Of a stretch of DNA of 17,383 nucleotides, positions 276 through 15,300 are shown piece by piece. The notes under the pieces were generated by a model, which did no database searches, was not told where the DNA came from, and saw only the letters and a program-made list of their open reading frames with translations. Each line of letters starts with the position of its first letter. Positions within the stretch are counted from its first letter, which is position 1. The position numbers were made by a program, and so were the translations under genes. The DNA is from Escherichia coli (GTDB lineage Bacteria; Pseudomonadota; Gammaproteobacteria; Enterobacterales; Enterobacteriaceae): NCBI RefSeq assembly GCF_003334255.1, contig NZ_QOWU01000075.1; one strand, given 5' to 3'.

Positions 276-1733
276 TTACATCAGCGGCATTGCCAAACGC
301 ACAATGCTAATCAGCGGTTGTGGCCATACACCCAGCACCAGTACCAACAGTGCAGAGATCAGCACAACGATACCGCCCGCGCTGTACTGCCAGTTTGATG
401 GTGCATCGCGACCCGGTTGTTCCGGGGCGTGAAGATACAGGCTCACCGCCACGCGCAGGTAGTAGTAGAGGCCGATTGCCGAACCGACAACCACGGCACC
501 CACCAGCCACCACAAGTGTGCCTGGACACCGACCGCCAGCACGTAGAACTTACCGATAAAGCCCAGCGTCATCGGGATACCGGCCAGAGACAGCATCATC
601 ACCGTCATCACTGCCGCGAGGATCGGACGATGCCAGAACAGACCGCGGTAAGAGAACAGGGAATCAGCATCCGGGCCACGATACGGGCTGGACATCAGGC
701 TGACCACGCCGAACGCGCCGAGGCTGCTGAACAGATAACCGGCCAGGTAAACCCCTACCGCTTCCATCGACATCTCGCCGGTTTGCAGCGCAATCAGCGC
801 TACCAGCAGATAGCCGAGGTGAGAGATAGATGAGTAACCGAGCAGACGTTTGATATTGGTCTGGCTCAGCGCCATCAGGTTACCGAAGATGATGGAGGCA
901 AAGGCGATAATCGCCAGCACCACGCGAATCGCTTCGCTGTCACCCACCGGTGCGTAGAGGAACAGACGCATCACCACACCGAAGATAGCGATTTTGCTCG
1001 CCGTCGCCAGGAAAGTGGAAACCGGCGCAGGCGCGCCCTGGTATACGTCTGGCGTCCACAGGTGGAACGGCACCAGAGAGAGTTTGAAGCCGAGGCCAAC
1101 AATCATCAGGCCGAAACCTGCCAGCAACAGCGGCTCGTTGAGCATACCGTCGCCAAGGTTTTTACCCAACGCGACAAACGACAGGTCGCCAGACTGCGCA
1201 TACACCAGCGCCATACCAAACAGCAGGAAAGAAGACGCTGCGGCAGAAAGGATGGTGTATTTGATACTGGCTTCCAGTGAACGTTTCTGGCGGAAAGCGT
1301 AACCGACCAGGCCAAACAGCGGCAAAGAGATCAGTTCGATACCGAGGAACAGAGACGCCAGATGGTTGGCATTCGCCAGCAGGATCCCGCCCAGCGCGGC
1401 AATTAACACCAACAGGTAGAACTCATCCTTGTTGTCGTTATAGCCTTCAAGCCACGGGTAGGCGAAAGTACAGGTGGCGAGGCTCGCCAACAATACCAGC
1501 CCGGTGTAAAGCATGGCGAAACCATCAACGCGCATCAGCGGCGTAACGTCCATAGCGCCCGCCTGGCCAACAAACCAGAGCGAAACCAGCGCCGCGTTAA
1601 GCCCAATAACCGAGAGCGTAGCGTTGAGGAAATGATTGCGTCGCCACGCAATGGAGAGCATCACAACCACCACCGTCAAGCCGACGATCAGCAACGGTAG
1701 CAGTGCGATCAGGTTTTGTGGAGTTATTGTCAT
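276..1733 (-). CDS. nuoN: NADH:quinone oxidoreductase subunit N (membrane arm, antiporter-like)
   Basis: 485-aa ORF, highly hydrophobic multi-pass membrane protein, last gene of the nuo array; length and sequence match E. coli NuoN. Confidence 0.95.
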
Positions 1734-1739
1734 GGCGAT

Positions 1740-3269
1740 TTACGGCCTTGTAGTAGTAACGGAATTAACAAACCACTGCTGGATATTGCCAATCGCGGAG
1801 TGCGAGGTATCCAGAATCGGCTGCGGATAGAAGCCCAGCAGTACCAGCAGCACCACCAGCAACAGGATCATAAACAGCTCACGCAGCGACATCCCTGGCA
1901 GTTCCTGGCTGGCAATCTGGCTTTTCGCTTTACCGAAGTAAGCGCGATGTAACATCGCCAGCGAATAAACAGATGCAAAGACCAGCCCAAAGGTAGAGAT
2001 AACGGTAATCACCGGTACAACCTGGAAGCTGCCGAACAGAATCATAAATTCGCCGACGAAGTTACCGGTGCCAGGCATCCCAAGCGTTGCCACCGCAAAG
2101 AACAGCGACAGTGCTGGCAGCCATTTCATCTTGCTCCACAGACCGCCCATCATGCGCATGTCGCGGGTATGGATACGTTCATAAAGCTGACCACAAAGAA
2201 TAAACAGACCCGCCGCCGACAAACCGTGCGCAATCATCTGGATTACCGCGCCCTGGTAGGCCAACTGGCTGCCGGTGTAGATAGCAATCAGCACGAAGCC
2301 CATGTGGGAAACCGAGGTGTAGGCGATCAGACGTTTGATATCGGTCTGGGCGAAGGCCATCCACGCACCGTAGAAGATGCCGATAACACCCAGCCACATA
2401 GCAATTGGCGCGAACTCTGCCGACGCGTTCGGGAACAGCGGCAGGGAGAAACGCAGCAAACCGTAAGCGGCAGTTTTCAGCAAGATCCCCGCGAGGTCAA
2501 CGGAACCGGCGGTCGGAGCCTGGGAGTGCGCATCCGGCAGCCAGCCATGCAGCGGAACCACCGGCATTTTGACTGCGAAGGCGATGAAGAAGCCCAGCAT
2601 TAACAGGTATTCCACACCACTGGACATTGGCGTATTCAGCAGCTCTTCATAGTTGAAGGTCCAGACGCCGGTCGCATTGTAGTGAACAAAAACCAGCGCC
2701 AGGATGGCAATCAACATCACCAGGCCACTCGCCTGGGTGTAAATGAAGAACTTGGTTGCCGCCGTGATACGCGTTTTACCGTCAGAGGCTTTATGCCCCC
2801 ACAGTGCGATCAGGAAGTACATCGGCACCAGCATCATTTCCCAGAAGAAGAAGAACAGGAACATGTCGATGGCAAGGAACACGCCGATAACGCCGCCCAG
2901 GATCCACATCAGGTTGAGGTGGAAGAAGCCCTGATATTTTTCGATCTCTTTCCACGAACATAGTACCGCCAGCACACCGAGCAGACCGGTCAGCACGACC
3001 ATCAGCAGCGACAGCCCGTCAATGGCGAGATGAATAGAGATACCAAAACGCGGGATCCACGGCATGTCGAATTCAGACTGCCACTGCGGAATTCCGGCGG
3101 ATTGCGTCAGTGAATAACCGCCCTGCAACCACAGTTGCAGCGACAGCGCCAGCGTCAATCCCATGGTGATCAGCGCGATCCAGCGTGGCACCTTGACGCC
3201 AAAGCGTTCGGTCTGCCAGCACAGGAAGCCGCCAATAAAGGGAATTAATATTAGCCAGGGTAGTAACAT
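1740..3269 (-). CDS. nuoM: NADH:quinone oxidoreductase subunit M (membrane arm, antiporter-like)
   Basis: 509-aa hydrophobic ORF, 6 bp upstream of nuoN in the same orientation; matches E. coli NuoM length and sequence. Confidence 0.95.
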   Translation of the reverse strand: MLLPWLILIPFIGGFLCWQTERFGVKVPRWIALITMGLTLALSLQLWLQGGYSLTQSAGIPQWQSEFDMPWIPRFGISIHLAIDGLSLLMVVLTGLLGVLAVLCSWKEIEKYQGFFHLNLMWILGGVIGVFLAIDMFLFFFFWEMMLVPMYFLIALWGHKASDGKTRITAATKFFIYTQASGLVMLIAILALVFVHYNATGVWTFNYEELLNTPMSSGVEYLLMLGFFIAFAVKMPVVPLHGWLPDAHSQAPTAGSVDLAGILLKTAAYGLLRFSLPLFPNASAEFAPIAMWLGVIGIFYGAWMAFAQTDIKRLIAYTSVSHMGFVLIAIYTGSQLAYQGAVIQMIAHGLSAAGLFILCGQLYERIHTRDMRMMGGLWSKMKWLPALSLFFAVATLGMPGTGNFVGEFMILFGSFQVVPVITVISTFGLVFASVYSLAMLHRAYFGKAKSQIASQELPGMSLRELFMILLLVVLLVLLGFYPQPILDTSHSAIGNIQQWFVNSVTTTRP

Positions 3270-3356
3270 GGCGATCTTTATTCCTTGTAAAAGTCCCGTC
3301 AGGACCGGATTTTCAACGAATTCTCACGACAGAAAATTCTCTTCGGACTGGGGGTA

Positions 3357-3394
3357 GTGTCGGATGCACCGCGAAGGCGGCTTATCCGACCTAC
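3357..3394. repeat. REP-like (repetitive extragenic palindromic) element in the nuoM-nuoL intergenic gap
   Basis: gtcggatgcaccgcgaaggcggcttatccgacctac: 7-bp arms gtcggat (3359..3365) and atccgac (3384..3390) around a GC-rich core. Resembles the E. coli REP consensus (gccggatgcggcg...cttatccggcctac). Lies in the 163-bp non-coding gap 3270..3432. Confidence 0.55.
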
Positions 3395-14085: not shown

Positions 14086-14178
14086 TGCAAATGGTCCGTG
14101 GTGACTGTCGGCGCAGTAAGCTTCGCGAAATAGATTTAGGAATAAGCGAAGAAAAATCCCTTTGCCGACAGGCGCAAA

Positions 14179-14841
14179 TTAAATCTCGTCAGGTGTACGC
14201 AGGTTAGTTACGGCAATGCGTTCACCGCGCTTGCGTTCGCGCTCTGATTGCATATTGGCGCGATAAACGCCCTGATCGCCAACCACCCAGGAGAGCGGAC
14301 GACGTTCTTTGCCGATAGATTCCTGCAACAGCATCAGTGCCTGCATGTACGCTTCAGGACGCGGCGGGCAGCCCGGGATATACACATCAACCGGGATGAA
14401 TTTATCGACGCCCTGCACAACGGAATAAATATCGTACATACCACCAGAGTTGGCACAGGCACCCATTGAGATAACCCATTTTGGTTCCAGCATCTGGTCA
14501 TACAGACGCTGAATAACCGGTGCCATTTTGGTAAAGCAGGTTCCTGCAACCACCATCAGGTCAGCCTGACGCGGCGAAGCACGCAATACTTCTGCGCCAA
14601 AACGCGCCACGTCATGCACCGCGGTAAACGAAGTCACCATCTCAACGTAACAGCAGGAAAGACCGAAGTTATACGGCCAAATTGAGTTTTTACGACCCCA
14701 GTTAACCATGTCATTGAGCTTGCCCATAAACACGTTTTTGTTAACTTCTTGCTCCAGAGGGTCGGTTACGATCTCCTGCTTTTGCAGGGGGTAACGGTCG
14801 TTCTCACCGTTGGGATCTATGCGGGTGAGCGTATAATCCAT
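14179..14841 (-). CDS. nuoB: NADH:quinone oxidoreductase subunit B (N2 4Fe-4S, PSST homologue)
   Basis: 220-aa ORF with conserved CCxxE ... C ... CP cysteines ([23 protein letters not shown]); matches E. coli NuoB. Confidence 0.95.
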
Positions 14842-14856
14842 CTTAATGCCTCGCGG

Positions 14857-15300
14857 TTAGCGTTGACGATTAGCGATACTGTTCGTTTCCGGGTTCATAC
14901 GCTCGCGGCGTGAACGCGCGGGCGTCCAGTCCAGCGCGCCAATACGCACCAGATAAACCAGACCTGCCAGTAACACAAAAATAAAAATTGCAGCTTCCAC
15001 AAAGCCTACCCAGCCGCTTTCGCGGATAGAGGTTGACCATGCGAACAGATACAGCGCTTCAACGTCGAAGATAACGAAGAACATGGCCACCAGATAAAAC
15101 TTGGCGGACAGGCGTAAGCGGGCGGAGCCGACCGAGTCGATACCGGATTCAAACGGCACGTTTTTCGACCTCGCGCGTGCGCGACCGCCTAAAAACCAAC
15201 CGCCTACCAGCATCAGGCAACACAGGCCAATGGCAACGATAAGAAAGATAGCGAATGCCCAGTGATGAGCGATGACTTCAGTGGATGTTGACATACTCAT
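14857..15300 (-). CDS. nuoA: NADH:quinone oxidoreductase subunit A
   Basis: 147-aa three-helix membrane ORF starting [14 protein letters not shown]; first gene of the operon, matches E. coli NuoA. Confidence 0.95.

Follow-up and report, generated by a model that had tools for sequence, protein, structure and literature searches.

The 17,383-nt stretch of Escherichia coli DNA analyzed here (the window) carries, almost certainly, the standard enterobacterial nuo operon, encoding the 13-subunit complex I (NDH-1) with fused NuoC and NuoD, together with the upstream gene lrhA, in a sequence equal to that of strain MG1655. We found no sequence argument against this reading. The MG1655 nuo operon (b2276-b2288) and lrhA (b2289), at 2,389,850-2,407,078 of NC_000913.3, agree with window positions 78-17306 at every nucleotide, and a search for differences from K-12 by ungapped comparison across these 17,229 nt returned 0 mismatches and 0 gaps. 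Because of this identity, all 13 Nuo proteins and LrhA are the reference proteins: the K-12 comparison that the original prediction had proposed gave 100% identity over the full length for 14 of 14 translations against the MG1655 RefSeq proteins, with no partial alignment. Two apparent BLAST mismatches, at 17307 and 17310, both fall inside an IS1 terminus past the real junction and are not K-12 differences. At least 80% of the window is held by 5,422 of the 5,426 complete E. coli genomes. The assessment that the region is not novel, its coding content being nuo plus lrhA, is thus borne out by sequence identical to K-12 MG1655.

The original prediction had also set the operon against the background of IS-rich, host-adapted lineages, a framing that the window does not support. 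The chromosomal DNA of the window equals that of K-12, and the insertion sequence signal is limited to a 77-nt IS1 terminus at each end, which says little about lineage. Shigella-type lineages would be expected to differ in sequence from K-12 MG1655. Judged by its nucleotides, the chromosomal part is indistinguishable from K-12 or from a very close phylogroup-A relative.

The operon occupies 276-15300 on the minus strand in the canonical order nuoA-B-CD-E-F-G-H-I-J-K-L-M-N, with lrhA upstream at 15931-16869. The predicted boundaries proved exact: the nuoN stop codon ends at 276, and the nuoA ATG begins at 15300. The listing of open reading frames contained 13 minus-strand frames across the operon (147, 220, 600, 166, 445, 910, 325, 180, 184, 100, 613, 509 and 485 aa, from nuoA to nuoN) in addition to a 312-aa frame at 15931-16869. 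The K-12 start codons shorten two of these, from 600 to 596 aa for NuoCD and from 910 to 908 aa for NuoG. Gene order, overlaps and spacers are all as in MG1655, confirming a complete nuoA-N set of expected lengths with fused nuoCD. A 150-aa plus-strand frame at 15801-16253 and other antisense frames were regarded as mechanical, none being annotated in MG1655.

Profile searches assigned most of the minus-strand genes individually, with above-cut-off, full-length NCBIfam equivalog matches for NuoCD, E, F, G, H, I, J, K, L, M, N and LrhA. At the distal end of the operon lie nuoN (276-1733, 485 aa; NF004439, 947.9 bits against a cut-off of 531, matched over 1-485 of 485), nuoM (1740-3269, 509 aa; NF004498, 1022.7 bits against 614) and nuoL (3433-5274, 613 aa; NF005141, 803.6 bits against 556). 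These are preceded by nuoK (5271-5573, 100 aa; NF004319, 197.1 bits against 101), which overlaps nuoJ and nuoL by 4 nt each, nuoJ (5570-6124, 184 aa; NF005162, 361 bits against 157), nuoI (6136-6678, 180 aa; NF004536, 370.9 bits against 212) and nuoH (6693-7670, 325 aa; NF004740, 657.7 bits against 399). From its K-12 start, nuoG spans 7667-10393 (908 aa; TIGR01973, 681.5 bits against 470), the mechanical frame reaching 10399 (910 aa). Further upstream are nuoF (10446-11783, 445 aa; NF008436, 1001.1 bits against 749), nuoE (11780-12280, 166 aa; NF005722, 274.7 bits against 141) and nuoCD (12283-14073, 596 aa from the K-12 start; NF008728 'subunit C/D', 1217.7 bits against 840, matched over 2-598 of 598). 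The nuoC and nuoD portions form one reading frame that matches PDB 7awt_D and 7p61_C over the full length; as in PGAP, this frame can be extended to 14085, giving 600 aa.

The two remaining subunits were recognized by other means. NuoB (14179-14841, 220 aa) passes NCBIfam subfamily models (NF005012, 256.5 bits against a cut-off of 116). NuoA (14857-15300, 147 aa) scores below all NCBIfam NuoA cut-offs although it equals K-12 NuoA, and since the protein is identical, the low score is a property of those models; its match to PDB 3rko_A covers the full length (1-147, E = 9.9e-95).

Cysteine motifs for Fe-S clusters, noted as conserved in the original prediction, were located in NuoB, E, F, G and I, with the cluster ligands present in each. 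NuoB carries C63-C64, C129 and C158 (cluster N2), NuoE has C92x4C97...C133x3C137 (N1a), and NuoF has C351xxC354xxC357...C398 (N3). Four Cys/His cluster motifs are found in NuoG at C34, H99, C151 and C228, and NuoI contains two CxxCxxCxxxCP ferredoxin motifs at C60 and C99 (N6a/N6b). In the K-12 enzyme, NuoE, F and G accept electrons from NADH via FMN. The Fe-S cluster chain of NuoG, I and B relays these electrons to quinone where NuoB, CD and H meet, and protons are pumped by NuoL, M, N, A, J and K. From identity with the biochemically and structurally characterized K-12 enzyme, we infer a proton-pumping NADH:quinone oxidoreductase activity, and the operon is presumably expressed and active in the source strain.

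It might be argued that the operon is silently defective, with a pseudogene or frameshift overlooked by eye. All 14 genes begin with ATG, end with a stop codon and lack internal stops and frameshifts, and the absence of any nucleotide difference from MG1655 over 17,229 nt, along with identical translations throughout, refutes this possibility, which we consider exceedingly improbable. The expectation of no frameshift or premature stop, a statement about intactness at the sequence level, is therefore upheld by 0 mismatches and 14 of 14 identical proteins.

Several non-coding elements accompany the genes. Directly after the nuoN stop, an intrinsic-terminator-like hairpin (GCCGCCGA-CAUGC-UCGGCGG followed by UUUUUCUG) lies on the minus strand at 224-259, with an RNA fold of -29 kcal/mol (z = -4.95; 0 of 200 shuffles equally stable). 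A consensus terminator scan of the window did not list this hairpin, which was instead folded directly. The symmetry of its A-run and U-run suggests that it may be bidirectional and also serve yfbP. The 163-nt gap between nuoL and nuoM (3270-3432, minus strand), read from the sequence and identical to K-12, carries the palindromic unit GTAGGTCGGATAAGCCGCCTTCGCGGTGCATCCGACA, which is putatively REP-like, judged by the REP consensus. In the 52-nt spacer that separates nuoF (stop at 10446) from nuoG (start at 10393), the hairpin of the nuoG RNA motif (Rfam RF01748) occupies 10401-10443 on the minus strand, matching the full model (1-43) with 50.3 bits against a gathering score of 33 (E = 3.2e-8); the Rfam search of the window gave no other match. 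The 630-nt region between nuoA and lrhA (15301-15930, minus strand) is nucleotide-identical to K-12 and, at about 0.44-0.49, lower in G+C than any other part of the window. On the basis of established K-12 knowledge, we assume this region to be the site of the nuo promoter and regulatory region. A consensus promoter scan yielded 4 matches, fewer than in shuffled sequence (mean of 11.1).

The operon and lrhA are already known, and the sole unusual point is that IS1 copies bound both sides. Differences between the window and MG1655 are confined to these flanks, where IS1 stands in place of the native sequence. Positions 1-77 (plus strand) are the right end (IRR side) of a first IS1 copy and match the annotated IS1A of DH10B at 100% (L001 1501-1577, with the CDS end at L001 1562). 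The first 62 nt of this end are the 3'-terminal part of the transposase (insAB') frame, whose stop codon occupies 60-62; the terminal inverted repeat ...GGAGTCATTACC follows and ends at 77. A second right end (IRR side) lies at 17307-17383 on the minus strand, inverted relative to the first and likewise a 100% match to DH10B IS1A; positions 1-77 are its exact reverse complement. Both ends thus show the terminal inverted repeat GGTAATGACTCCAACTTATTGATAGTG next to the 3' end of the transposase gene, and in both copies the transposase reads toward the interior of the window, for the second copy in the same direction as lrhA. The equal length of the two 77-nt ends suggests that the window is a short-read contig broken in a repeat, probably at the point where the IS1 sequence begins.

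On the left, IS1 replaces the sequence upstream of approximately codon 245 of yfbP, leaving a 3' remnant of the last 115 nt (78-192, plus strand; MG1655 yfbP at L003 617-1465, window offset +1273). The gene is truncated by the element, and its first 734 nt are outside the window. No place with at least 80% coverage of the left IS1-yfbP junction was found in the 5,426 complete E. coli genomes. On the right, IS1 stands in place of the distal stretch of the lrhA-alaA spacer, and the exact junction upstream of lrhA is absent from the same 5,426 genomes. The right-junction query was covered by at least 80% in 16 genomes, and in those inspected, IS1 sits elsewhere in the same spacer. The natural strains 503025, Ec1120 and EEC_W5 share with the window an IS1 copy that lies upstream of lrhA, has its transposase on the same strand as that gene and points its IRR end at it. 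The transposase gene of this IS1 terminates about 555 nt before the lrhA ATG in 503025 and Ec1120, placing the element roughly 100 nt further out, whereas in EEC_W5 IS1 directly abuts the lrhA start codon.

The right-hand insertion raises the question of lrhA expression. LrhA is a LysR-type repressor of flagellar and fimbrial genes, and the protein encoded here (312 aa; 15931-16869, minus strand; NF011673 equivalog, 600.9 bits against a cut-off of 530) is that of MG1655. A published lrhA 5' UTR length of 371 nt (PMC10578931) places the inferred transcription start at 17240, with a -10-like TAAAAT upstream of it at 17252-17247. The UTR and the 66 nt that separate it from the IS1 junction (16870-17306, minus strand) were read from the sequence and are equal to K-12. 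The IS1 end at 17307 is therefore 437 nt upstream of the start codon and about 67 nt upstream of the transcription start of lrhA. It is possible that the element deprives lrhA of upstream regulatory DNA or lets read-through transcription enter the gene, thereby altering LrhA levels, motility and fimbriation while leaving the operon intact. The closeness of 17307 to 17240 and the shared reading direction of the transposase and lrhA are consistent with such an effect, as are the natural isolates with IS1 in the same spacer and orientation and the repeated IS insertions into lrhA among laboratory strains (lrhA::IS3 in ER1821R being one case). However, the insertion leaves the -10 element, the entire UTR and the coding region intact, and we regard an altered lrhA as rather unlikely; it would in any event have no bearing on the nuo finding.

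Alternatively, the nuo-lrhA segment between the inverted IS1 copies could be a rearranged or mobilizable unit, arising from an IS1-mediated inversion (duplicative, or by recombination between inverted copies) or constituting a composite-transposon-like element with the whole complex I operon as cargo. IS1 composite transposons with inverted arms do exist, Tn1681 being an example. The identical, inward-facing IS1 ends in inverted orientation would agree with this, and since neither junction occurs in the 5,426 complete genomes, both events would be recent. The same geometry, however, is expected of any two inverted IS copies, and the window covers 77 nt of each IS1, so that the outer flanks and any target-site duplications would lie outside it. 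A complete IS1 measures 768 bp, with both inverted repeats and insA/insB', and has an 8-9-bp target duplication. The 16 natural genomes with at least 80% query coverage, in which IS1 lies independently in the lrhA-alaA spacer, fit simple insertions. An IS1-bounded nuo segment was found neither among 72,556 plasmids nor in the 5,426 complete E. coli genomes. Plasmid matches that might have indicated a mobilized nuo segment were chromosome-sized or chromosome-derived records filed as plasmids; the sole 100%-identical one, CP137936.1, is flanked by ordinary chromosomal DNA, yfbM-yfbP at one end and alaA-yfbR at the other. We consider a rearranged or mobilizable unit improbable, although an inverted or relocated position of the 17.2-kb segment in the source genome is conceivable. 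The flanks most likely originated from two independent IS1 insertions, of which one hit yfbP and the other the lrhA-alaA spacer. The broader alternative, that the IS1 pair inverted or mobilized the 17.2-kb nuo-lrhA block as a unit or that the IS1 copy 67 nt upstream of the lrhA transcription start rewires LrhA expression, with consequences for motility and fimbriation, appears quite doubtful, and the identity of the nuo operon would be unchanged either way.

The standard nuo operon with lrhA has its value only as a negative result: the window holds no undescribed system, and its complex I genes are intact and equal to the best-studied reference. The IS1 flanks, in turn, explain the contig break, show the disruption of yfbP and mark a strain-specific insertion upstream of lrhA.

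In relation to known systems, the arrangement recalls the IS1-flanked composite transposons Tn9 and Tn1681, in which cargo is bracketed by two IS1 copies as it is here. Unlike in those elements, the bracketed segment is a 17.2-kb piece of core chromosome that keeps its native arrangement and shows no evidence of mobility. The closest counterpart is E. coli complex I itself: since positions 78-17306 equal MG1655 base for base, the encoded enzyme is one already solved by cryo-EM. No sequence-level difference separates it from the available E. coli structures (PDB 7awt, 7nyr, 7z7s, 7p61 and 9taj; membrane arm 3rko), and NuoCD and NuoA match complex I chains in 7awt, 7p61, 7z7s and 3rko over their full length. 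Some complex I entries use the 600-aa NuoCD start, and their four extra residues correspond to the open reading frame start at 14085.

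The nuo operon, encoding complex I, appears in the ORF listing as an unbroken series of minus-strand open reading frames (window 276-15300), whose products measure, from 15300 down to 276, 147, 220, 600, 166, 445, 910, 325, 180, 184, 100, 613, 509 and 485 aa. The frame next after this series encodes the 312-aa LrhA (15931-16869, minus strand). NCBIfam names the products NuoA, NuoB, NuoC/D, NuoE, NuoF, NuoG, NuoH, NuoI, NuoJ, NuoK, NuoL, NuoM, NuoN and LrhA. NuoCD, NuoE through NuoN, and LrhA each match an equivalog model over the full length and exceed its curated cut-off, with NuoC/D scoring 1217.7 bits against a cut-off of 840 (NF008728) and LrhA 600.9 bits against 530 (NF011673). 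NuoB passed subfamily models and NuoA fell below every NCBIfam cut-off; residues 1-147 of the latter match PDB chain 3rko_A, the E. coli NuoA. NuoCD aligns along its entire length to chains in solved structures of E. coli complex I (7awt, 7z7s, 7p61 and others). The fusion of nuoC and nuoD claimed in the original prediction is confirmed by a single ORF covering 2-598/598 of the NF008728 profile. The conserved Fe-S cysteine motifs it described were likewise recovered: the ligands are C63-C64, C129 and C158 in NuoB, C92x4C97 and C133x3C137 in NuoE, C351xxC354xxC357 and C398 in NuoF, four motifs starting at C34, H99, C151 and C228 in NuoG, and two CxxCxxCxxxCP motifs at C60 and C99 in NuoI. Every defining feature of a nuo operon that can be tested in sequence is present.

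By megablast, at least 80% of the window is found in 5,422 of 5,426 complete E. coli genomes, among which K-12 derivatives match 100.0% across window 1-17313. An ungapped, base-by-base comparison with MG1655 (NC_000913.3 2,388,500-2,408,800) gave 0 mismatches over window 78-17306; the sole two differences in the BLAST alignment, at 17307 and 17310, lie past the true junction, within an IS1 terminus. When the 14 genes were translated from the start codons used in MG1655, all 14 proteins equaled their MG1655 counterparts, each beginning with ATG, ending at a stop codon and free of internal stops, so that the operon is complete and, in sequence, intact, as had been claimed. The mechanical ORFs of nuoG (910 aa, annotated 908 aa) and nuoCD (600 aa, annotated 596 aa) are longer only because of start-codon choice, and a 600-aa NuoCD is in use by RefSeq PGAP and some PDB entries. 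Gene spacing is also that of K-12, with 4-nt overlaps at nuoE/F, nuoG/H, nuoJ/K and nuoK/L and spacers of 105 nt (nuoB-nuoCD), 52 nt (nuoF-nuoG) and 163 nt (nuoL-nuoM).

The nuoF-nuoG spacer carries the nuoG RNA motif (RF01748; 10401-10443, minus strand; 50.3 bits against a gathering score of 33), the only Rfam family above its gathering score in the window; the hairpin is not known to have an established function. Directly 3' of the nuoN stop codon, a strong hairpin followed by a U-run (224-259, minus strand; -29 kcal/mol, z = -4.95) forms the expected operon terminator. It is absent from the output of a simple consensus terminator scan, showing that such scans can overlook real sites. The nuoL-nuoM spacer (3270-3432, minus strand) is unusually long at 163 nt and identical to that of K-12; it contains a REP-like palindrome, GTAGGTCGGATAAG...CATCCGAC. 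G+C is lowest in the 630-nt spacer between nuoA and lrhA, which is identical to K-12 and therefore contains the known nuo promoter region.

Window 1-77, when reverse-complemented, equals 17307-17383 exactly. Both stretches match the right end of IS1A, as annotated in DH10B, at 100% identity, and each consists of the final 62 nt of the transposase frame and the terminal repeat GGTAATGACTCCAACTTATTGATAGTG. Two inverted IS1 copies therefore bracket a 17,229-nt nuo-lrhA chromosomal block, their right-end inverted repeats and transposase reading direction pointing inward. This geometry would permit an inversion of the bracketed block or a composite-transposon-like unit, but any two inverted IS copies would look the same and the window stops inside IS1. 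Among 72,556 plasmid records searched, nuo occurs only on chromosome-sized or chromosome-derived records, and in the single 100% match, CP137936.1, the segment is flanked as usual by yfbM-yfbP and alaA-yfbR, with no IS1. We consider either arrangement very unlikely. CP137936.1 (locus L006), the 365-kb 'plasmid unnamed1' of E. coli 2023CK-00004, carries yfbM-nuo-lrhA-alaA-yfbS in chromosomal order at 100% identity to K-12; it probably entered the plasmid database as a piece of chromosome or as a mis-binned replicon. PLSDB also contains several 'plasmids' of 4.8-4.9 Mb that are clearly chromosomes. The equal 77-nt ends suggest a k-mer overlap from the graph of a short-read assembly, and the window is probably a whole contig that ends where a collapsed repeat begins.

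The left IS1 cuts yfbP, of which the last 115 nt remain (78-192), and this junction was covered to at least 80% at 0 places among the 5,426 complete genomes. The right IS1 is upstream of lrhA, 437 nt from the ATG, with its transposase reading in the same direction as lrhA. Given the reported lrhA mRNA 5' UTR of 371 nt (PMC10578931), transcription would start at ~17240, placing the IS1 end at about -67; a TAAAAT -10-like element is read at 17252-17247. The core promoter, UTR and coding sequence are untouched by IS1. An effect of this copy on lrhA regulation is plausible from its position, if rather unlikely, and would be peripheral to the nuo result. The exact right junction occurs in no complete E. 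coli genome; its query is covered to at least 80% in 16 natural genomes, and in the three inspected (503025, Ec1120 and EEC_W5; loci L004, L005 and L002) IS1 sits elsewhere in the same spacer, upstream of lrhA and oriented as in the window. In 503025 and Ec1120, ~555 nt separate the end of the IS1 transposase gene from the lrhA ATG downstream; in EEC_W5 IS1 adjoins the start codon. IS1 has evidently inserted into this spacer repeatedly, and in laboratory strains lrhA itself is known to be hit by IS elements, as in lrhA::IS3 of ER1821R (PMC4982283).

The flanking IS1 ends, the truncation of yfbP and the strain-specific IS1 insertion upstream of lrhA are incidental to the nuo result. A hidden nuo defect is excluded by the absence of mismatches to MG1655 and the identity of all proteins. 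The IS-rich, host-adapted lineage invoked in the original prediction finds no support: the window holds just two IS1 termini, and its chromosomal part does not differ from K-12 MG1655 and is near-identical to some phylogroup-A isolates, such as EEC_W5 (1 mismatch in 16,796 nt). The view that the coding content is core energy metabolism plus lrhA with nothing novel is supported, and the judgement that the finding is ordinary is correct. Judged by its sequence, this already known operon is not just a relative of the K-12 nuo operon but that operon itself.
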